Under the pieces are notes generated by a model that had not been told where the DNA came from, searched no databases, and saw nothing but the letters and a program-made list of their open reading frames with translations. 64,000 nt of DNA from Gammaproteobacteria bacterium (GTDB lineage Bacteria; Pseudomonadota; Gammaproteobacteria; Pseudomonadales; Pseudohongiellaceae): the NCBI GenBank assembly GCA_040218615.1, contig JAVJRC010000004.1, positions 77,659 to 141,658 of the forward strand, read 5' to 3'. Within the stretch, counting starts at the first letter, position 1, and the number at the start of each line of letters is the position of its first letter. Shown here one piece after another: positions 1,342 through 35,000 of the stretch. The translations under genes were made by a program, and so were the position numbers.

Positions 1342-1899
1342 TCAGAATGACAGCAGATCTTCTTCTTTCGCCTGAAAGGCGTCTTCAATTTGTGCGATGT
1401 ATTTGTCGGTAAGTTTCTGGATCTGTTCTTCCGCGCGATGCTGGTCGTCTTCAGAGATTTCCTTCTCTTTCTCCAGATCCTTGAAGTCGGTATTGGCATC
1501 GCGGCGGATATTGCGAATGGCCACTCGCGCATTCTCGGCTTCATTCTTTGCCTGCTTGGTAAATTCCTTGCGGGTTTCTTCAGTGAGCGGTGGCATGGGT
1601 ACGCGGATAGTGTTGCCATTGTTGGACGGGTTTAGCCCGAGGTCTGACTTGAGAATCGCCTTCTCGATATCGCCAATCATCTGTTTTTCCCAGGGCGAAA
1701 TGACCAGAGACCGACCCTCTTCAACGGTGACGTTGGCCACCTGGCTCAGCGGTGTGTCGGCCCCATAGTAGGACACCACGACTCCGTCAAGTAAGCTGGG
1801 GTGGGCACGGCCTGTGCGGATTTTTTTGAACGCCTCATCAAGGGAAACCAGGCTCTTCTGCATGCGATCTTCGGCATCTGCAATTATTTCATCGATCAT
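1342..1899 (-). CDS. frr: Ribosome recycling factor
   Basis: 185 aa with a typical Frr sequence ([16 protein letters not shown]...[12 protein letters not shown]). Follows pyrH-frr synteny. Confidence 0.97.
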
Positions 1900-3579: not shown

Positions 3580-3831
3580 TGTTGTGCCTCTTAAATTTCT
3601 TTGAAGTGGTCTTGCCACTTCGTCATATTAGGAATTGATGCTGCCAGCATCGCTGAGGGTGGCAGCAATCCGGCCTGCACCTAAGGAGGGGCAAGCCATT
3701 TTAATTCACGCTGAAAACCGGGTAGACCAGTGCTCCCGGCTAATCTGACTATCCAGTCCAGGTCCAGCTTAGCGGGATAACCGGGTTGCACAGCAGCCCG
3801 GCTATGCCTGTCAGACCAGAACCTGAAAGGT

Positions 3832-4965
3832 CTAGTCTTCGCTGTCCTTTGCTGCAGCCTTTTTCTTGGCAGGCGCCTTCTTCTTGGCTGTAGTTTTCTT
3901 CTTGGCAGCTTTTTTCTTTGCCGGAGCCTTCTTGGCAGTTTTCTTGGCAGCCTTCTTCTTGGCCGGAGCTTTTTTCTTGGCAGCCTTCTTCTTGGCTGGT
4001 GCCTTTGCTTCGGCTGGTTCGGCTTCCTCTTCCGCGGCATCGGCCTTGGCTTCAGCTTTCTCTTCAGCTTCATCGCTCGCAGCGGCTTCTGGCTCGGCTT
4101 CTTCCTTGTCGCCCGACTCTTCAGCAGCTTTTTCTTCTACAGCTTTTTCTTCGGGCTCGGGAGCGGCAGCGGCTTTTTCTTCAGCGGGCTTGTCTTTCTC
4201 CCCGCCTTCTTCGTCTGCATTGCTGCTGGCGGTAACGGGCTCATCATCTATTTCGATGAACTCGCTGGCACCACCGTCAGGACCACTGCGCTTGTTACCT
4301 TCTACGCAGGCATCCGCCACGGCTTCCGAATACAACTGAATCGCGCGAATCGCGTCATCGTTGCCAGGAATCACATAATCCACACCGGCTGGATCACTGT
4401 TGGTATCGACCACACCAATCACCGGAATGCGAAGGCTATTGGCTTCGGTTACAGCAATTCTTTCGTGTTCCACATCAATCACGAACAGGGCATCGGGCAA
4501 ACCGCCCATGTCCTTGATACCACCGATACTGCGTTCCAGTTTTTCCTTGGCTCGGCGCAGCATCAACGCTTCTTTCTTGGTGAGACGCTCAAAAGTACCA
4601 TCCACTTCCTGGGTTTCCAGTTCTTTCAGGCGCTTAATCGAACCGCGAATAGTTTTGTAGTTGGTCAACATACCGCCCAGCCAACGATGGTTAACATAGG
4701 GCATGCCTGCGCGCTCCGCCTGCTCACGCACAATCTTAGCCGCAGCACGCTTGGTGCCGACAAACAGAATCTTTTTCTTCTTTTGCGCCAGGTCGGTGAC
4801 CTGTTCCAGAGCGGAATTGAGAGCAGGAACGGTGTGTTCCAGATTGATGATATGAATCTTGTTTCTGGCGCCAAATATGAATGGCTCCATCTTCGGGTTC
4901 CAGTAGCGACACTGGTGCCCGAAATGCACTCCTGCACGGAGCATTTCTTTCATGCTTACAGTCAT
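3832..4965 (-). CDS. rpsB: 30S ribosomal protein S2 with a ~135 aa C-terminal low-complexity extension
   Basis: [26 protein letters not shown]... is the canonical S2 core, about 240 aa. A Glu/Ala-rich and then AKKK-repeat tail follows in the same frame up to the stop at 3832. Start ATG at 4965. Confidence 0.92.
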
Positions 4966-5295
4966 CTTTATACCTTTTGGGTTAGGCCTCCACACACCCC
5001 ATGGTTCAACCCAATCCCGATGAAAAAATTGGGCACCCAGAACACACGTGTCGGTGTATGTGCGACGTTAAATAGTTAATTTACCCAGTATCACCCGGAA
5101 TGGGTGCCTGAGCGGGGCGCTTTATACCATAATCTGCTGATTTTCGAAACAATTTCGCTTACTTAGGGTTTGTAAATTAAGCATTCCAGGTTGGATCTTC
5201 GAAGTTGGTCCACTAAGGTGACTATGAAGGGCTTTCCGGGCACGTTTTGGACTCTGGAAGTCCTGATTCTAGAACCGAGGATGGTCGGATTCGGC

Positions 5296-5465
5296 AGCGG
5301 GATTGCACTTTCCGGACACGCCGTAAACCCGGGCCCAGCCACCGATCACAGATCGGTGTCGTTCGCCTGTCGCTGCGAGCTGCGCTCGCAAAACGCTCGG
5401 GCTCACCCCTGGGGGCTCGGGAGCAGCATCCCTGCTGCTCACGGTCCGGAAAGTGCAATCCCGCT
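5296..5465 (-). repeat. Structured palindromic element, long form, copy 1 (core on minus strand)
   Basis: Perfect 22 bp inverted arms (5296-5317 / 5444-5465). They enclose a ~125 nt core that is near-identical to the core at 30079-30203 in reverse complement. Confidence 0.85.
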
Positions 5466-5652
5466 CCCAAATCCTGAGAGGGCCCGTGAACCTTTCATCC
5501 CGCCCCGCTCTCTCACGCTGCACTTGAACTCTGCGGAATTTAGGTGGTGTTATGTAGCTCACCTCTGGTGGTTATAAAAGAAGAGCTTCTCTATTGCTCA
5601 GGCTGGTGCTGATATCGATAGAAGCTCGAGAAGAAAGATGCGCAGGAGTTCG

Positions 5653-5764
5653 AGGATGAGGGTCAGAAGGCTTAGATTGGGACCGTGAGCAGCAGGGATG
5701 CTGCTCCCGAGCCCCCATGGATGGGTTCACGGCGTGTCCCACTCTAAGCCTTCTGACCCTCATC
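5653..5764 (+). repeat. Structured palindromic element, short form, copy 2
   Basis: 30 bp inverted arms (5653-5682 / 5735-5764) with one mismatch. The core shares GGGACCGTGAGCAGCAGGGATGCTGCTC...ACGGCGTGTCCC with copies 1 and 3 but lacks the ~75 nt central module. Confidence 0.85.
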
Positions 5765-5896
5765 CCATCTGGCACTCCAGCAGTTTCAGGTTCAAACCCA
5801 ACAAAACCAGGACCGAGCATCGCTGTAATCCAAGGGGTGACTGCTTTAAAATAGCCGCCTTTCGCAAACCGGGCCAAAGCCCCGTTGTAGTAGCTG

Positions 5897-6670
5897 ATGA
5901 GTATTTCGATAAAAACCCCCGAAGATCTGGAAAAAATGCGCGTGGCCGGCCGGCTGGCTGCTGAAGTGCTGGAAATGATTGGTCCTCATGTGAAGCCAGG
6001 CGTCAGTACTGGCGAGCTGGACCGTATTTGCCATGACTATATAGTAGAAGAACAGAAGGCTATTCCAGCGCCGCTGAATTACAATGGATTCCCCAAATCC
6101 ATTTGCACCTCAGTGAATCATGTGATTTGCCACGGCATTCCCAGTGACGGTAAGTTGCTGAAATCCGGGGATATTATCAATATTGATGTGACCGTGATTA
6201 AGGACGGTTTCCACGGCGACACCAGCAAGATGTTCTGCGTGGGCGAGGTGCCCGATCATGCCAAGCGCCTGATTCGGGTTACCCAGGAATGCCTTTATAA
6301 GGCTATTGGTATCGTCAAGCCCGGGGTCACCCTCGGCGACATCGGTCACGTGATTCAGCAGCATGGGGAGGCCAATAACTACTCTATAGTGCGTGAGTAT
6401 TGCGGACATGGAATTGGACGGATCTTTCATGAAGAACCGCAGGTATTGCACTACGGTCGACCCAATACAGGACTCAAGATCAAGGAAGGCATGACTTTTA
6501 CTATCGAACCCATGCTGAACGCCGGCAGCCGCTACACCAAGCTTTCCAAGAAAGACGGCTGGACGGTGACCACCAAAGACCGTCGCCTTTCCGCGCAGTG
6601 GGAGCACACCCTGGCGGTCACCGCCGAGGGCTGCGAAGTGCTGACCCGGCGCTCCGACGAAAGCCTGTGA
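5897..6670 (+). CDS. map: Type I methionine aminopeptidase
   Basis: 257 aa, MSISIKTPEDLEKMRVAGRLAAEVL...HGIP...EHT. Divergent from rpsB and upstream of glnD, as in many gammaproteobacteria. Confidence 0.96.
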   Translation: MSISIKTPEDLEKMRVAGRLAAEVLEMIGPHVKPGVSTGELDRICHDYIVEEQKAIPAPLNYNGFPKSICTSVNHVICHGIPSDGKLLKSGDIINIDVTVIKDGFHGDTSKMFCVGEVPDHAKRLIRVTQECLYKAIGIVKPGVTLGDIGHVIQQHGEANNYSIVREYCGHGIGRIFHEEPQVLHYGRPNTGLKIKEGMTFTIEPMLNAGSRYTKLSKKDGWTVTTKDRRLSAQWEHTLAVTAEGCEVLTRRSDESL

Positions 6671-9399
6671 CTTTCGACAATCTTTCAATCTCTGAAGCTG
6701 CTGTTGAGGTTCCCGCCGACACCAGTGCGGAGCTGCTGGATGTCGCTGCGCTGAAAGATGCGCTGGCTGAGGCTGCCACGCCTGTACCGTTGCTGAAAGA
6801 GGCACTGGCAAGAACCAGCACTATTCTCGATGAGCGTTACCAGCAGAATCTGAATATCACTGACATCGTGCAGGGCCGGGCCTGGGTGATTGATGAGATT
6901 CTGAAAATTGCCTGGGAACGGCAGGACTGGCCAGATCAGGAGAACATCAGCCTGGTGGCTGTTGGCGGTTATGGGCGTGGTGAATTGCTGCCCCATTCGG
7001 ATATCGACCTGCTCATTCTTACCCGCAAGGATCGTAACGCCAGTTACCGGGAGTATATCTCCGCCTTTTTGACCCTGCTTTGGGACATTGGCCTGGAAAT
7101 CGGGCAAAGCGTGCGTTCGGTCAAGCAGTGCAAACAGGAAGCGATGAAAGATATCACTGTTGCCACTGCCTTGATGGAATCCAGAACCATTACTGGAGCA
7201 GCCGATCTGCACGAAAAGATGATGGACCTGACTTCTGGCAAGCGCGTGTGGCCAACCAAGAAGTTTCTCAGCGCCAAGCTGGAAGAGCAGAACCAGCGCC
7301 ACCAGAAATATCACGACGTGGATTATGCACTGGAGCCCAATGTAAAAACCTCGCCCGGCGGCTTGCGTGATATTCAGACCATTGCCTGGGTGACACGCCG
7401 CCATTTCGGTGCCGTCTCTTTCAAGGACCTGGTCGAACTGGGTTTTCTCAAGCCCTCAGAAGAAGCCATGATCAGTAAGGGCCAGCAATTCCTGTGGAAA
7501 TTGCGCTACGGGCTGCACATGCTGCAGGGGCGGTGTGAAGACCGCCTGCTGTTTGACAAGCAGCGGGAATTGGCACGTCTGTTTGGCTATGAAGATGACG
7601 AAAAGTCACTGGGCGTGGAAAAACTGATGAAGCAGTATTACCGGGCAGTGGCAAACCTTCGGGCGCTTAACGATGTGCTGCTGCAACACCTGGATGAAGC
7701 CATTCTCCGCGAAGGCGAGCGTGAGACGATCAAACCACTCAACTCCCGCTTCCAGATTCGCAACGACTACATTGAAGTAGTCAGCAATGACATGTTTGAG
7801 CGCTATCCTTTTGCGCTTTTGGAAATTTTTGTGCTGATGGCGCAGCACCCGGAAATCAAAGGCATTCGCGCCAGTACCATTCGGCTATTGAGGGACAACC
7901 GGCGCCTCGTTGACGATGAATACCGTAATGATATTCGCAATGTATCGCTGTTTATGGAATTGCTGCGTTCGCCACACATGGTCACCCTGCAGCTTCGACG
8001 CATGTCTCGATACGGCCTGCTGGGGCGGTATTTACCGGAATTTGGCCAGATCACCGGGCAGATGCAACACGATCTGTTTCATATTTATACGGTTGATGCG
8101 CACACACTTCAGGTGGTGGAGAATATGCGCCGCTTCTCCTATCCAGAAGCAGAATCCCAGTTTCCCGTAGCCGCCAAGATTGCACGCAATCTGCCCAAGC
8201 CTGAATTGTTGTATATCGCTGGTCTTTATCATGATATCGCCAAGGGACGTGGTGGTGACCATTCGGAACTGGGCAGACTGGATGCCGAGAATTTCTGCCG
8301 CAGGCACCGCCTCAGTGATTGGGATACCAAGCTGGTAGTGTGGCTGGTGGAAAAACACCTGATCATGTCCATGACCGCGCAGCGCAAGGACATCTCCGAC
8401 CCGGAAGTGATCCGTGAGTTCGCCCAGAGCATGGGTGACAAGCTGCATCTGGATTACCTCTACGCCCTGACCGTAGCGGACATTCGCGCCACCAATCCTG
8501 AGCTGTGGAATAGCTGGCGGGCATCCCTGATGCGAGAGCTCTATCTGAACACCAGTGCTGCCTTTCGAGAGGGCCTGGAAAACACGGTAAACCGTAGCGA
8601 ACGTATCGCGGACAAGCGGGACTCGGCGCGTGCCAGGTTGCTGGAGCGTGGTCTTACGGACACACAGATCGATGCGGTGTGGGAGAACGCTGCCGAGGAA
8701 TATTTTGTTCGCGAATCTACGGCCAATATCGTTTGGCACACGGAAGCGATTGCGACATTCTCAGGGGAAGGACCACTCGTCTCAATCAAGGAAATGGAAG
8801 TTACCACATCCAAAGACACGGCTGATGAAGGCGCCACGCTGGTGTTTATCTATACCAAAAATGCCGACTTCCTGTTCGCCAACAGCACAGCCGCTTTCGA
8901 AAAGCTGAATCTCAATATTCATGGCGCAAGAATCTTCACTTCTTCCAATGACTACTGCATGGATACCTATACGGTGTTGGAAACCAACGGCAAACCTGTC
9001 GGTAACAACCTCAAGCGGCTGGAAGAAATTAAACGGGAACTGGAATCCAATCTGCAAATCGGGCATCGACCCGCGACTCCTGCTCGCCTGCGCCGCAGTC
9101 GTAAGGCGCAATATTTCAGTAATGCCGTGGATACGGTATTTCTGGATTCGGGCAACAAGCCCTACTCCACTATCAAGATCAATTGCCCGGACCAGCCAGG
9201 CATTCTGGCCTGCGTAGGTAAGGTGTTTGCCGAAAATAACATCAACCTGCAGGATGCCCGGATTACGACGCTGGGTGAACGAGTGGAAGACCTGTTCTTT
9301 ATCACTGACCAACAAGGTAACCCGATCGAGGACGCAGAGCTGAAGAATCACCTGCAGGAAGAGATCAAATCAGAACTCGAAGACAGGCTCACAGCGTAA
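6667..9399 (+). CDS. glnD: Bifunctional PII uridylyltransferase/uridylyl-removing enzyme
   Basis: Nucleotidyltransferase (GGYGRGELLPHSDIDLL), HD (LYHDIAKGRGGDH) and two C-terminal ACT-like regions. The start is uncertain; I propose the GTG at 6667, which overlaps the map stop. Confidence 0.9.
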   Translation: MTFDNLSISEAAVEVPADTSAELLDVAALKDALAEAATPVPLLKEALARTSTILDERYQQNLNITDIVQGRAWVIDEILKIAWERQDWPDQENISLVAVGGYGRGELLPHSDIDLLILTRKDRNASYREYISAFLTLLWDIGLEIGQSVRSVKQCKQEAMKDITVATALMESRTITGAADLHEKMMDLTSGKRVWPTKKFLSAKLEEQNQRHQKYHDVDYALEPNVKTSPGGLRDIQTIAWVTRRHFGAVSFKDLVELGFLKPSEEAMISKGQQFLWKLRYGLHMLQGRCEDRLLFDKQRELARLFGYEDDEKSLGVEKLMKQYYRAVANLRALNDVLLQHLDEAILREGERETIKPLNSRFQIRNDYIEVVSNDMFERYPFALLEIFVLMAQHPEIKGIRASTIRLLRDNRRLVDDEYRNDIRNVSLFMELLRSPHMVTLQLRRMSRYGLLGRYLPEFGQITGQMQHDLFHIYTVDAHTLQVVENMRRFSYPEAESQFPVAAKIARNLPKPELLYIAGLYHDIAKGRGGDHSELGRLDAENFCRRHRLSDWDTKLVVWLVEKHLIMSMTAQRKDISDPEVIREFAQSMGDKLHLDYLYALTVADIRATNPELWNSWRASLMRELYLNTSAAFREGLENTVNRSERIADKRDSARARLLERGLTDTQIDAVWENAAEEYFVRESTANIVWHTEAIATFSGEGPLVSIKEMEVTTSKDTADEGATLVFIYTKNADFLFANSTAAFEKLNLNIHGARIFTSSNDYCMDTYTVLETNGKPVGNNLKRLEEIKRELESNLQIGHRPATPARLRRSRKAQYFSNAVDTVFLDSGNKPYSTIKINCPDQPGILACVGKVFAENNINLQDARITTLGERVEDLFFITDQQGNPIEDAELKNHLQEEIKSELEDRLTA

Positions 9400-9414
9400 A
9401 CAGGCATCCCTATC

Positions 9415-9765
9415 GTGATCGTTCTTTTCGGTATCAGCAACTGCGACACTATCAAGAAAACCAGGAGATGGCTGGATAGCCATAAGCTGGATTATGAGTT
9501 TCACGATTACAAAAAACAGGGCTGTAATACGAAACTTGCCAGGACGCTCACTGAGGTGTTCGAGCTGGACCGCCTGATCAACAAGCGTGGAACCACCTGG
9601 CGAAAACTGCCAGAGCAAGTCAAGAACTCGCTCACCACTGCAAAAGCCCGGGAGCTCATGACCGCCAACCCTTCGGTGATCAAGCGGCCAATCCTGAAGA
9701 TAGGTGATGAATGGGCATTGGGCTATGCTGAAAAGTTATGGGAAGCATTGATCAAAAAGCAGTAA
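9415..9765 (+). CDS. yffB: ArsC/Spx-family protein, YffB-like
   Basis: 116 aa, GTG start, LFGISNCDTIKKTRRWL...KRPIL signature of the ArsC-fold YffB subgroup. Lies upstream of dapD. Confidence 0.75.
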   Translation: MIVLFGISNCDTIKKTRRWLDSHKLDYEFHDYKKQGCNTKLARTLTEVFELDRLINKRGTTWRKLPEQVKNSLTTAKARELMTANPSVIKRPILKIGDEWALGYAEKLWEALIKKQ

Positions 9766-14607: not shown

Positions 14608-15948
14608 CTAGCGCTTCTTGCGACGTGCCGTTTTGCGTTTGGCCGTTTTGCGCTTGGCGGTTTTCCTTTTCGCCTTCTTGCGCGCTGGCTTACGCTTGGC
14701 TGTCTTCTTCTTGGCCTTCTTTTTAGCCTTCTTCTTCGCAGCTTTCTTTTTGCGAGCCGGCTTACGCTTGACTACTTTTTTCTTCGCCTTCTTTTTGCGT
14801 GCTGGCTTGCGCTTGGCGGTTTTCTTCTTCGCCTTGCGCTTCGCTGCTTTCTTCTTGCGAGCTGGCTTACGCTTGGCTGCCTTGCGCTTGGCTACTTTCT
14901 TCTTAGCCTTCTTCTTGGCTGCCTTCTTCTTGCGTGCCGGCTTGCGCTTGGCGGTTTTCTTCTTCGCCTTACGCTTGGCTACTTTCTTCTTGGCCTTCTT
15001 CTTGGTTGCTTTGCGCTTGGCTGTCTTCTTCTTAGCCTTCTTTTTAGTTGGCTTGCGCTTGGCAACTTTACGCTTCGCAGCTTTCTTGGCTGCTGCTCTG
15101 CGCTTCACAGACTTCCGCTTGGCAGTCTTCTTTTTGGCCTTCTTTTTGGCTTTTTTCTTGGCCTTCTTGCGACCAGGAGCCTTTTTCTTAGCCTTCTTGC
15201 GACCAGGCGCTTTCTTCTTCGCCTTACGCTTGGCTACTTTTTTCTTAGCCTTCTTTTTAGCCTTTTTCTTGGCCTTTTTCTTTCGGGCCGGCTTGCGCTT
15301 GGCGGTTTTTTTCTTCGCCTTACGCTTGGCTACTTTCTTTTTGGCTTTCTTCTTGGCCTTCTTCTTGGTGGCCTTACGCTTGGCAGTTTTCTTCTTCGCC
15401 TTACGCTTGGCTACCTTCTTTTTGGCCTTTTTCTTGGTTGCTTTGCGCTTGGCAGTCTTCTTCTTGGCCTTCTTCTTAGCCTTTTTCTTGACTGTCTTGC
15501 GCTTGGCAACTTTACGCTTCGCAGCTTTCTTCGCGGCCGCTCTGCGCTTCACTTTCTTCTTCGCTTTCTTTTTGGCTTTGCTGACCTTCTTCTTGGCTTT
15601 CTTTTTGGCCTTGCTAGCCTTCTTTTTCACTTTCTTTTTGGCCTTGCTGACCTTTTTCTTGGCCTTGCGAACCTTCTTCTTCACCTTTTTCTTGGCTTTG
15701 CCCGCTTTTTTCTTGGCCTTTTTCTTCGCCTTACTTACCTTCTTTTTGGCTTTTTTCTTGGCCTTACTGACCTTTTTCTTTGCGGCTTTCTTTTTGGCAG
15801 TGGCTTTACGCTTTACTGCCGCCTTTTTCTTGGCAACTTTCTTCTTCGCAGTCGTTGCTTTACGCTTCGCTGCTACCTTCTTCTTGGCAACCTTCTTCTT
15901 AGCTGCTGCCTTTTTCTTCGCAACTTTCTTTTTCGCTTTCTTAGCCAT
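14608..15948 (-). CDS. Extreme polycationic Lys/Ala/Arg repeat protein (histone-H1/AlgP-like composition)
   Basis: 446 aa ORF with ATG preceded by GAGG. The translation uses only M, A, K, R, V, T, S, G and P. A terminator lies downstream. The equal-length plus-strand ORF is a mirror artefact. Confidence 0.7.
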   Translation of the reverse strand: MAKKAKKKVAKKKAAAKKKVAKKKVAAKRKATTAKKKVAKKKAAVKRKATAKKKAAKKKVSKAKKKAKKKVSKAKKKAKKKAGKAKKKVKKKVRKAKKKVSKAKKKVKKKASKAKKKAKKKVSKAKKKAKKKVKRRAAAKKAAKRKVAKRKTVKKKAKKKAKKKTAKRKATKKKAKKKVAKRKAKKKTAKRKATKKKAKKKAKKKVAKRKAKKKTAKRKPARKKKAKKKAKKKAKKKVAKRKAKKKAPGRKKAKKKAPGRKKAKKKAKKKAKKKTAKRKSVKRRAAAKKAAKRKVAKRKPTKKKAKKKTAKRKATKKKAKKKVAKRKAKKKTAKRKPARKKKAAKKKAKKKVAKRKAAKRKPARKKKAAKRKAKKKTAKRKPARKKKAKKKVVKRKPARKKKAAKKKAKKKAKKKTAKRKPARKKAKRKTAKRKTAKRKTARRKKR

Positions 15949-22185: not shown

Positions 22186-23079
22186 TTAATCTGTGTAGCC
22201 AAGACTCTGTAACGCACGTTCGTCGTCGGCCCAGCCGGATTTTACCTTGACCCAGAGGTTGAGCATGACCTTGGTGGAAAACGCGGTCTCCATGTCTTCC
22301 CTGGCAGCGCTGCCGATCTGCTTCATACGTGATCCGTCTGCGCCAATCAGTATTTTCTTTTGCCCGGGCTTATCCACCAGAATCAAACCATGGATATGCA
22401 AAACTTTCTCTTCCTGTTCGAATTTTTCGATTTCGACCGTAACTTCATAGGGTAACTCATCACCCAGTTGCCTGGTCACTTTCTCCCTGATCAACTCAGC
22501 AGCAAGAAAGCGGGAGCTGCGATCGGTAACCTGGTCCTCGGGGAACAGGAACGGCCCCTCAGGCAGATACCCATGCACCAGTTGTTCCAGAGTCTCCAGG
22601 TTATGACCGCCCAGTGCAGAGATGGGCACCACTTCCGCGAAATCGTATCGCTTGGACAATTGTTCAATATGGGGCAGCAGCAGTTGTTTGTCTTTCAGTA
22701 AATCAACCTTGTTGATCACCAGAATCACCGGCACCCTGGATTGCTGGAGTTTACTCAAGACCAGTTCGTCGGTTTCATTGAATACAGTGCGCTCAACTAC
22801 GAATACCACCACATCCACATCGCGCAAGGTGGTTAACACCGCCTCATTCATGATGCGATTGAGTTGCTTGCGCTGGTCCGAATGCAAACCTGGTGTGTCC
22901 ACAAACAGGGTTTGATGACTACCCGTGGTGTTGATGCCCAGGATTCTATGCCGCGTGGTCTGTGGTTTGCGTGAGGTAATGCTGATCTTTTGCCTGAGCA
23001 AATGATTGAGCAAAGTAGACTTGCCCACATTGGGTCTGCCTACCAGCGCGACATAGCCACAAAAAGTTTTCTCAGTCAT
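22186..23079 (-). CDS. era: GTPase Era
   Basis: 297 aa with G1 [17 protein letters not shown] and a KH domain. Overlaps the rnc stop. Confidence 0.96.
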
Positions 23080-23758
23080 TCTCGTCCAGTGCGTCCAGTT
23101 GTTTCAGCATATTTTTCGCCGCTTCCTGTTCAGCCATGCGTTTGCTGCTGCCAGAGCCCTGTTGCGCCTGCCCGGAGAGAGTGGTCTCGCATGCCACCAG
23201 GAATTGTTGCGCGTGGGCTTTACCGCTTGTCTCCAGCACCTTGTAGCTGGGCAGTTCTTGTCCCTGGGACTGCAGCAACTCCTGTAATTGGGTCTTGTAG
23301 TCCTTGCGCCGTCGGCGTTTGGGATTCGCCAGCAGTTCGCTGGTGATTCTTGCGATGAATTCCTTGCAGCGGCCTATACCCGCATCCAGATAGACTGCGG
23401 CGACGATGGCTTCCAGCGTGTCCGCCAGGATGGATTGGCGCTGTTTGCCACCGCTGCTGGCCTCACCAGCGCCGAGATAGACTGCATCACCGACGCCCAG
23501 TTCAGCGGCGATTGTGGCCAATGCAGATTTATTGACAATGGCCGCGCGCATGCGAGTGAGTTCGCCTTCGCTGGCTTCTGGATAGGATTCAAAAAGCTGT
23601 TCGCCGATGACAAAATCCAGCAAGGCATCGCCCAGATATTCAAGGCGTTCGTTATTGGGTCTGCCGGCACTGCGGTGCGTCAGTGCCTGCCGCAGTAATC
23701 CCGAGTCTTTAAACTGATAGTCGAGGTTCTGTTGGAGTTGATCTTGCCCGGCTGCCAT
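23072..23758 (-). CDS. rnc: Ribonuclease III
   Basis: [11 protein letters not shown]...[12 protein letters not shown] catalytic signature plus a dsRBD. I chose the ATG at 23758; the listed 292 aa ORF is extended at its N-terminus. Confidence 0.93.
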
Positions 23759-23771
23759 CTCACAAGTCGTT

Positions 23772-24149
23772 CTATTGCAGAACGGTGTCGAAGACGGCGA
23801 CGATATCCAGATTGGCCACCAGTGGAAGGCGGCGTTCATAGGCCACCGTGATAATGGCGTTGCCGTTTTCCTTGCGCATGCGAATGTCCGAAAGATCAAA
23901 GCCGGACACGTTATTGATCCGCAGACTGGCCGAAACACGTTCCCTGACATCGTTGACTGTCATATTGGCCGCCTCGCCATTGTCGATCAATTCCTGACAG
24001 ATGCCGGTGATCAGATTGTGATCCACATACAGGGGTCCTACTTTCAGACCCACCGTGAAAAACAGGGTGATGATGACAATAACCAGCATCAATCCTGATT
24101 TTGAAAATCCCCGTTGCCTGTCAAGTCTGCTATTGCTTACACGATTCAT
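23772..24149 (-). CDS. DUF4845-type small membrane-anchored protein
   Basis: About 125 aa with a single N-terminal TM. It occupies the conserved slot between lepB and rnc. ATG at 24149 with AGGGA upstream. Confidence 0.7.
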   Translation of the reverse strand: MNRVSNSRLDRQRGFSKSGLMLVIVIITLFFTVGLKVGPLYVDHNLITGICQELIDNGEAANMTVNDVRERVSASLRINNVSGFDLSDIRMRKENGNAIITVAYERRLPLVANLDIVAVFDTVLQ

Positions 24150-30048: not shown

Positions 30049-30233
30049 GGATGAGAGTCAGAGAGTGTAGTTTGGGACCGTGAGCAGCAGGGATGCTGCT
30101 CTCGAGCCCCCAGGGGTGAGACCGAGCGTTTTGCGAGCGAAGCTCGCAGCGACAGGCGAACGACGCCGATCTGCGATCGGCGGCTGGGCCGGGTTTACGG
30201 CGTGTCCCACACTACACTCTCTGACTCTCATCC
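30049..30233 (+). repeat. Structured palindromic element, long form, copy 3
   Basis: 30 bp inverted arms (30049-30078 / 30204-30233) with one mismatch. The core is near-identical to the reverse complement of 5318-5443. Confidence 0.85.
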
Positions 30234-34812: not shown

Positions 34813-34844
34813 TGGCGCCCCCGGGCCGATTTGAACGGCCGACC
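34813..34844 (-). pseudogene. tRNA 3'-end fragment (T-arm, acceptor 3' strand and CCA only)
   Basis: A 26 nt stretch (34819-34844) is identical to 34930-34955 of the adjacent tRNA-Arg. No complementary 5' acceptor strand lies upstream. Confidence 0.65.
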
Positions 34845-34923: not shown

Positions 34924-35000
34924 TGGTGTCCCCGGGCCGATTTGAACGGCCGACCTAGCGCTTAGGAGGCGCTTGCTCTATCCAGCTGAGCTACGGGGAC
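34924..35000 (-). tRNA. tRNA-Arg (anticodon CCU)
   Basis: The minus strand reads GTCCCCGTAGCTCAGCTGGATAGAGCAAGCGCCTCCTAAGCGCTAGGTCGGCCGTTCAAATCGGCCCGGGGACACCA. Cloverleaf with 7 bp acceptor stem, CT-CCT-AA anticodon loop, TTCAAAT T-loop and encoded CCA. Confidence 0.93.

Follow-up and report, generated by a model that had tools for sequence, protein, structure and literature searches.

Intergenic palindromic repeats of a Pseudohongiella-like gammaproteobacterium are probable divergent members of the YPAL family and carry a candidate dual CsrA/RsmA-binding head

The palindromic element that occurs three times in the window (the whole 64-kb stretch of DNA analysed) is assigned, with very high confidence on the homology of its head, to the YPAL superfamily of repeats. 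YPAL (Yersinia palindromic sequence), also called RU-2, was reportedly described by De Gregorio et al. in 2006. The explanation that we favour overall, with modest confidence, is that the element is a YPAL-type repeat in which a hairpin selected on one strand would present a dual CsrA/RsmA-binding module. Each unit is one member of a dispersed, non-coding, multi-copy repeat family, of which only the YPAL (RU-2) miniature insertion sequences of Yersinia and Pectobacterium are known to have been described. The part that is conserved in this family is a three-way junction with two GGA hexaloops, and not the terminal repeats. The features in the window are as follows.

5633–5789, plus strand: copy 2, the whole short-form element of about 157 nt, composed of an imperfect outer stem, 30-bp inner arms and a three-way-junction head (from the fold with flanks; 91 bits with the covariance model R1)
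5654–5683, plus strand: 5′ inner arm of copy 2 (5′ strand of P1), GGAT...GGAC (sequence, repeat finder, pair tally)
5736–5765, plus strand: 3′ inner arm of copy 2 (3′ strand of P1), partner of 5654–5683 except at T5677·C5742
5684–5735, plus strand: conserved head of copy 2, a three-way junction with P2 and P3 (alignment, pair counts, RNAalifold)
5687–5706, plus strand: P2 hairpin of copy 2, 7-bp stem GAGCAGC/GCTGCTC with the hexaloop AGGGAT at 5694–5699 (covariation)
5684–5685 with 5708–5709, plus strand: paired extension of the P2 stem of copy 2
5711–5733, plus strand: P3 hairpin of copy 2, GCC/GGC and CCC/GGG stems with the hexaloop ATGGAT at 5717–5722 (covariation)
5726–5730, plus strand: internal loop of P3 of copy 2, conserved TTCAC
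5287–5474, minus strand: copy 1, long form, with arms at 5287–5317 and 5444–5474 (repeat finder, covariance model, pair tally)
5318–5443, minus strand: head of copy 1, with an insert of about 73 nt replacing the P3 loop
30031–30244, plus strand: copy 3, long form of about 215 nt, with inner arms at 30049–30078 and 30204–30233
30079–30203, plus strand: head of copy 3, 125 nt, with an insert of about 73 nt (about 30112–30189)

A search of the 64-kb window with the covariance model and all filters off matched exactly three copies, and all of them are intergenic. Copies 1 and 2 form one head-to-head pair between rpsB (with its t44 leader) and map, and copy 3 lies between rpoE and nadB. Each unit has a GC content of about 0.6 and folds into one long hairpin. 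The imperfect outer stem lengthens this hairpin beyond the inner arms, giving the unit sizes listed for copies 2 and 3, and the outer boundaries of the elements are fuzzy. The hairpin fold of copy 2 has an energy of −83 kcal/mol (z = −12.8 against shuffled sequences), and the fold with flanks has −96 kcal/mol (z = −9.0). Neither a sigma-70-like promoter nor a U-tract or Rho-independent terminator was detected in the region 5050–5950. When the whole window was compared with Rfam at the gathering threshold, only t44 and a tRNA were found. The t44 RNA (rpsB leader; 4981–5082, minus strand, 69 bits) adjoins copy 1 and is located downstream of it in the direction of rpsB.

The first-pass annotation of this DNA had reported that copies 2 and 3 share a core enclosed by 30-nt inverted arms, and both the sequence and the repeat finder confirm this. 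The coordinates given there for copy 2 (5653–5764) were one base too low, and the rest of that description was exact. The arms are 97% complementary within each of the two copies. An explicit pair tally reproduced the six compensated differences claimed for them: six pairs differ between copies 2 and 3 (left-arm positions 5661, 5668, 5669, 5671, 5672 and 5676 of copy 2), all six are Watson–Crick pairs in both copies, and two of the six are transversion pairs. The single T·C mismatch is kept in both copies, as had been stated, at arm position 24 (T5677·C5742 in copy 2 and T30072·C30210 in copy 3); it had been placed near the base of the arm, but it is located at the core-proximal end, 7 bp from the core. 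Across the family, mismatches other than wobbles occur in about 9–10% of the elements at positions 6–7 from the junction and in 0–8% elsewhere, and the conserved T·C mismatch is a trait of this lineage and not a rule of the family. The 31-nt arms of copy 1 are mutually paired except for one U·G and one G·G.

The cores and the arms of the three copies are decoupled. Arm identity is 80% between copies 2 and 3 and only 37–40% between copy 1 and either of them, whereas the cores are 95–98% identical, including the insert of about 73 nt that copies 1 and 3 have in common. Similar decoupling was also found at the loci L038, L067 and L091. Judging from these alignments, either the cores would have undergone gene conversion or the arms would have been made anew at insertion. 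In copy 3, the insert adds two hairpins and removes the GGA loop of P3. Both long forms in the window, copies 1 and 3, have lost this loop and retain one GGA hairpin. Long forms were also observed in Porticoccaceae (L005 136–263, minus; L012 3668–3795, minus; L007 4097–4223, plus), where P3 is expanded by extra GGA-loop hairpins with the loops AAGGAU and AUGGAU, so that one element has up to four GGA-loop hairpins. The long forms of Porticoccaceae and those of Pseudohongiella and the window (about 73 nt, no GGA) appear, from their sequences, to be two independent elaborations of P3.

The structure of the head was deduced from the covariation in a gap-free alignment of 61 distinct copies. It is a three-way junction in which P1 consists of the arms and in which the P2 and P3 hairpins have A-N-G-G-A-N hexaloops. 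P2 consists of a 7-bp stem and two further pairs, with the hexaloop AGGGAU; P3 has two segments of 3 bp with a conserved internal loop, UUYAC, between them and is capped by A-N-G-G-A-U. The proposed partners are paired in 97% of the cells among these 61 members, as compared with 36–46% when the partners are slid. Covariation scored 0.78, as compared with 0.19 in shuffled alignments, and none of 500 shuffles reached 0.78. RNAalifold found double changes at 22 of the 28 pairs. Six of the seven P2 pairs covary (for example, the pair 14–37 is G-C in 51 copies, U-A in 5, C-G in 2 and A-U in 2), and so do the P3 pairs 43–54, 44–53 and 42–60. The pairing statistics for the arms are partly circular, as copies with arms were kept, whereas those for P2 and P3 are not. 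The earlier suggestion that the hairpin is under selection is thus upheld by the 61 members.

The arms are 14–45 bp long across the family, and those in the window have about 22 variable bp between the conserved GGAT and GGAC ends. They differ between most loci (between-contig identity of 0.31), though relatedness is frequent among copies that share a contig. The way in which they change can be seen from related copies and orthologues: compensated double changes number 81 and uncompensated ones 5, and a further 65 changes are one-sided, 47 of them between a Watson–Crick pair and G·U. The arms evolve by point substitutions, with G·U as the intermediate on the way to a compensated pair, which is the course that a helix under selection usually takes. 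All six compensated differences that separate copy 2 from copy 3 are fully explained by this process. The 65 one-sided changes, with the 47 of the Watson–Crick↔G·U kind among them, also mean that fold-back copying does not explain the arms; this was the proviso under which the first-pass annotation would have given up its reading, namely that arms are always perfect through fold-back synthesis. The element family offers a natural data set for the evolution of long helices.

A strand asymmetry was found among the non-Watson–Crick pairs of the arms: with symmetric scoring, G·U accounts for 95 of them and A·C for 18 (p = 8e-14). We hold with high confidence that pairing is selected on one strand, which is the strand showing GGA in its loops. 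This fits the early reading of the structure as one that acts in single-stranded form, either as RNA or as ssDNA. Since G·T is the mildest and best-tolerated mismatch in DNA hairpins too, the G·U excess cannot separate RNA from ssDNA; that the selected strand acts as RNA seems the somewhat more probable of the two possibilities.

The homology with YPAL is located in the head of 52 nt. The Y. pestis RU-2/YPAL sequence (PMC2759123, Delihas) holds the same P2–P3 core, ...CGTCCGCGCC-AAGGAU-GGCGCGG-CUCGAGC-CUAC-AUGGAU-GUA-UUUACGGCGUC..., and the P3 region of the window element matches RU-2 at 23 of 28 positions. Beyond this core of about 50 nt, no sequence similarity between the arms and outer segments and YPAL/RU-2 was found. 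The window copies appear to be new and divergent members of the YPAL family, that is, distant homologues. The Rfam family RF02770 (Ysr224), which covers the YPAL core, gave the sole non-trivial Rfam match to the window element: copy 2 scored 33.8 bits (E = 8.6e-6), on the opposite strand and below the gathering threshold of 70. Sub-threshold matches of 29–34 bits were obtained at six family loci. The first-pass annotation had recognised no named family in the element; this is not supported, given the homology of the head and the consistency of these sub-threshold matches. The only locus that passes the Ysr224 threshold is L084, whose two copies score 125 and 105 bits and are 86–88% identical to RU-2 over 167 nt; these YPAL copies also score 60–65 bits with the covariance model R1, which was built without them. 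A review counts Ysr224 among the most often annotated 'sRNAs', which fits a repeat. The Ysr224 model does not represent the three-way junction, and its strand is opposite to the one that favours G·U and shows the GGA loops; the model is drawn too narrowly, and the strand chosen for it is probably the wrong one.

The summaries in two papers (PMC2229807, PMC2759123) describe YPAL as a MITE-like repeat of Yersinia and Erwinia carotovora, about 168 bp long with internal inverted repeats. According to the same summaries, YPAL has recently been mobile, inserts next to dyad symmetries with target-site duplications of 3–26 bp, and has copies that are co-transcribed with upstream genes and may affect transcript stability (PMC2229807, PMC2759123). 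The window element resembles it in size (168 nt against about 157 nt for the short form) and in forming a long hairpin with internal inverted repeats, and both are intergenic, multi-copy and not AT-rich. Three differences are found. The Yersinia arms are conserved between copies, which is consistent with a recent burst, whereas the arms in the window and in most environmental copies differ by locus. YPAL has been reported only from Yersinia and Erwinia carotovora, whereas the present element comes from a Pseudohongiella-like marine gammaproteobacterium. The window also has the long form with its insert of about 73 nt. Regarding the earlier verdict 'not a decaying MITE', the element is indeed not decaying, as its pairing is selected, but 'not a MITE' does not stand, as the literature classes YPAL as a MITE.

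The family comprises at least about 175 copies in at least 128 public loci, and the loci that are named are mostly from Gammaproteobacteria. An exact 20-mer from P2 gave 18 matches in a genome scan, and the same architecture was found in Pseudohongiella, Porticoccaceae/SAR92 and other gammaproteobacterial genomes, with the nearest relatives of the element in Pseudohongiella. A degenerate pattern of the two-hairpin core matched at least 120 metagenomic loci, and long complementary arms lie beside 104 of 135 pattern matches, although the pattern does not demand arms. Many of the related contigs carry several copies. The 'Yersinia-specific MITE' YPAL and the 'Yersinia sRNA' Ysr224 are thus very probably parts of a far larger structured family that is found in marine and environmental Gammaproteobacteria. 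The literature search gave no earlier account of the breadth of this family or of head-to-head pairing, nor one of a three-way junction with twin GGA loops or of a strand-specific wobble signature. Copy 2 gave no blastn match in E. coli genomes or in PLSDB plasmids.

Some candidates were set aside. Five loci of the 20-mer scan (L003, L006, L008, L010 and L013) lack the architecture and are chance matches, as are L019 (viral), L028, L048, L059, L106 and L139 among the matches to the metagenome pattern. The microRNA matches in Rfam at E > 0.001 are of the kind that any long hairpin gives, and RU-3 (Delihas) is a REP-type repeat of E. coli that differs from the window element.

Three side observations concern individual relatives. 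A contig from Logan SRR23272297 (L140) is 99.2% identical to the window at 5710–9670 and represents an independent assembly of the same organism; it ends inside copy 2, illustrating how repeats break short-read assemblies. In Pseudohongiella OZ243108.1 (L017), a long-form element at 1594–1738 (minus strand) has, directly on its 3′ side, a long array in which the octamer GGAGCCTC is repeated in tandem. In Halothiobacillus neapolitanus, the 'CGTC-1 dimers' are all located within 41-bp palindromes, ...GAAAaACC--attcacgGGTaTTTC... (PMC3733652); these palindromes resemble the arm-head-ATTCACGG-arm layout of the element and may belong to this family despite their different name.

The element shares single traits with several other known systems. 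Rfam family RF01731 (TwoAYGGAY), which occurs partly in gamma-Proteobacteria and for which RMfam predicts CsrA binding, also has two adjacent hairpins with A-Y-G-G-A-Y loops in a poorly conserved outer stem. It gave no cmscan match at E ≤ 10 over 5100–5950 and none at E ≤ 0.01 in 18 loci; of the loops of copy 2, AUGGAU of P3 fits the AYGGAY pattern, but AGGGAU of P2 does not (R for Y). The window element also differs from it in being a dispersed multi-copy repeat with an outer stem of 25–35 bp. The sponges CsrB, CsrC and RsmX/Y/Z likewise have several loop GGA motifs that match the CsrA SELEX consensus. These sponges are single-copy genes with a GacA/UvrY-dependent promoter, a terminator and about 4–22 GGA sites, whereas the present family has two sites per unit (range 1–5 overall) in many dispersed units, with no promoter or terminator detected.

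Among repeats, the REP/BIME/REPIN group and the CGTC-tagged REPs are also intergenic palindromes with head-to-head dimers, alternating clusters (as at L067), compensatory changes in the hairpin and a CGTC motif, a similar one being located 5′ of P2 here. REPs, however, are single stem-loops of 20–40 bp with an unpaired tag, whereas the present unit has 150–215 nt with a three-way junction, and its CGTC-like 'tag' is partly paired, C13 being joined to column 38 and G14 to column 37; and no RAYT gene (IS200/IS605-type Y1) was found among the 58 window ORFs. The MITEs ERIC/IRU and Correia/NEMIS are likewise long intergenic hairpin repeats, of 100–170 bp. They are transcribed, and Correia elements are cut by RNase III. 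They have conserved terminal inverted repeats and TA duplications, whereas here the apical head is conserved and the stems vary. The family also differs from a classical MITE in its non-conserved arms and in that no parent IS was found.

The leading guess at a function, which we put forward tentatively at close to even chances, is that the twin GGA hairpins are a dual binding module for CsrA/Rsm, as predicted from the loop motifs. According to the literature, CsrA has a preference for GGA in a hairpin loop, and its sites are generally paired, matching the protein dimer. ANGGA motifs number 2.1 per element on the sense strand, as compared with 0.14 on the antisense one. The SELEX consensus RUACARGGAUGU is matched exactly in 11 of 144 elements and at 11 of 12 positions in 41 more, as compared with no exact match and one match at 11 of 12 positions in 2,880 shuffled sequences. 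A part of the loop conservation and of the SELEX match stems from the way in which copies were collected, as the search patterns fixed GGGATG and GGAWG; the ANGGAN loops are also kept in 45 covariance-model matches from outside the regex selection.

The favoured explanation would work as follows. The conserved head of about 52 nt sits on a stem of 25–35 bp in which pairing is required and the sequence is free. The twin GGA hairpins would form a dual site for one dimer of the CsrA/RsmA family, with the long stem as a rigid clamp, and the unit could thereby act as a portable CsrA-binding module, either by titrating the regulator or by tagging transcripts. The copies would spread as a non-autonomous mobile or duplicating element, preferably as head-to-head pairs. 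If the loops bind CsrA/Rsm, these repeats would add a distributed and evolvable layer to the Csr/Rsm regulon, and they would represent a new class of protein sponge, one whose spread is by duplication. A bolder form, in which the YPAL superfamily as a whole is a SINE-like, mobile and dispersed carrier of a high-affinity dual CsrA/RsmA site in many Gammaproteobacteria, is a speculation that we consider rather unlikely on the present sequences; if it were true, copy number and transcription level would buffer or retune the Csr/Rsm network, and single insertions would put neighbouring transcripts under CsrA control.

The arrangement of the copies was also examined. Copies separated by 600 bp or less are arranged head-to-head in 25 cases, tail-to-tail in 2 and in tandem in 1; a preference for head-to-head dimers, with head-to-tail ones rare, is also known from REP families. 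Such pairs are found in all three kinds of intergenic region (tandem, convergent and divergent), and the idea that they mark divergent promoters was rejected. Singletons have no orientation bias toward genes (39 in the same and 32 in the opposite direction relative to the upstream gene, and 35 and 35 relative to the downstream gene). All three window copies are sited in a 5′-UTR pointing at the downstream gene, but this siting did not generalise in the family. Orientation relative to GC skew, as a proxy of the replication strand, was unbiased (27/33), and sigma-70-like promoters were not enriched upstream of the elements across the 91 that were analysed. At L067, five copies occur within 1 kb (3829–4823) in strictly alternating orientation, like a BIME cluster; a 466-bp unit with two opposite copies is duplicated in tandem there.

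These data must also be weighed for other explanations. A selfish REP- or MITE-like DNA element, whose hairpins and loops are recognised as ssDNA by a transposase encoded elsewhere (HUH/RAYT-like or other), would have its structure kept for mobilisation and not for an RNA function. We regard this as possible but unlikely. The recent mobility and the 3–26 bp target-site duplications beside dyad symmetries that are reported for YPAL would suit such an element, as would the REP-like excess of head-to-head pairs, the CGTC-like tetranucleotide 5′ of P2 in the consensus, the unbiased orientation toward genes and the near-identical cores with arms that can be unrelated. However, the Pfam scan of the 58 window ORFs found only families of cellular function or no match, and no transposase, integrase or HUH enzyme, so that the nearby dedicated transposase that the first-pass annotation had named as a refuting condition is absent from among them. 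The orientation relative to GC skew is unlike that of lagging-strand-template transposition, and the pairing of C13 and G14 of 'CGTC' by covariation is unlike the unpaired REP tags. Moreover, the loops coincide with the CsrA consensus far beyond chance, and most copies have unique arms, so that recent copying from a single master element does not account for them. A generic hairpin acting in cis on mRNA, through stability, processing by RNase III or attenuation, as ERIC, Correia and REP do in UTRs, would make the GGA loops incidental, and this appears improbable. A perfect 30-bp duplex is a textbook substrate of RNase III, whose gene (rnc) is located in the window at 23075–23950; every copy is intergenic; and co-transcription of YPAL with upstream genes, possibly with an effect on transcript stability, is reported, as mentioned above. 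Against this, the orientation is unbiased relative to both upstream and downstream genes and there is no U-tract terminator, and such a role would leave unaccounted for the conservation of the loops and the junction across orders while the stems are free.

The remaining two explanations concern the arms. If template switching or fold-back at the DNA level copied one arm from the other, palindromes would be kept up without selection, and compensation would be a mutational by-product. The six compensated pairs that distinguish copy 2 from copy 3, with two transversion pairs and no intermediate, could be read in this way, and so could the close metagenomic copies L021, L083, L123 and L124, which differ only by compensated doubles. 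However, a process on dsDNA treats both strands alike and cannot yield the observed excess of G·U over A·C. The one-sided differences between related copies, the survival of the same T·C mismatch in copies 2 and 3, and the covariation of the short P2 and P3 stems in the manner of the arms also speak against it. As the sole cause, it is very improbable and largely refuted, though it could still speed compensation. Finally, small guide or antisense RNAs might be cut from the hairpin like shRNAs, in which case the variable arms would be their precursors and would themselves carry the specificity. The locus-specific stretch of about 22 bp between the conserved GGAT and GGAC ends would suit this idea, but nothing else in the window matches the arms, there is no exact match to them in 2.9 million viral contigs, their length of 14–45 bp does not suit it, and orthologous arms drift through wobbles with no sequence constraint seen. 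We give it hardly any credence.

Several other features of the window were observed. The ORF at 14608–15948 (minus strand) encodes 446 aa that consist almost entirely of AKKK/AKRK repeats, like histone H1 or AlgP, and is the source of most direct-repeat families in the window; the plus-strand ORF that overlaps it has no Pfam match. The ribosomal protein S2 encoded at 3835–4995 (minus strand; Pfam domain at residues 18–233) has a Lys/Ala-rich C-terminal extension of about 150 aa, with repeats at 3838–4016 of the same kind as those of the gene at 14.6 kb. A 32-nt direct repeat occurs at 34813–34844 and 34924–34955 with 94% identity. The second of these is the 3′ part of a tRNA-Arg(CCT) gene (34924–35000, minus strand); the first, where no tRNA was called, may be a tRNA fragment as left at an integration site.
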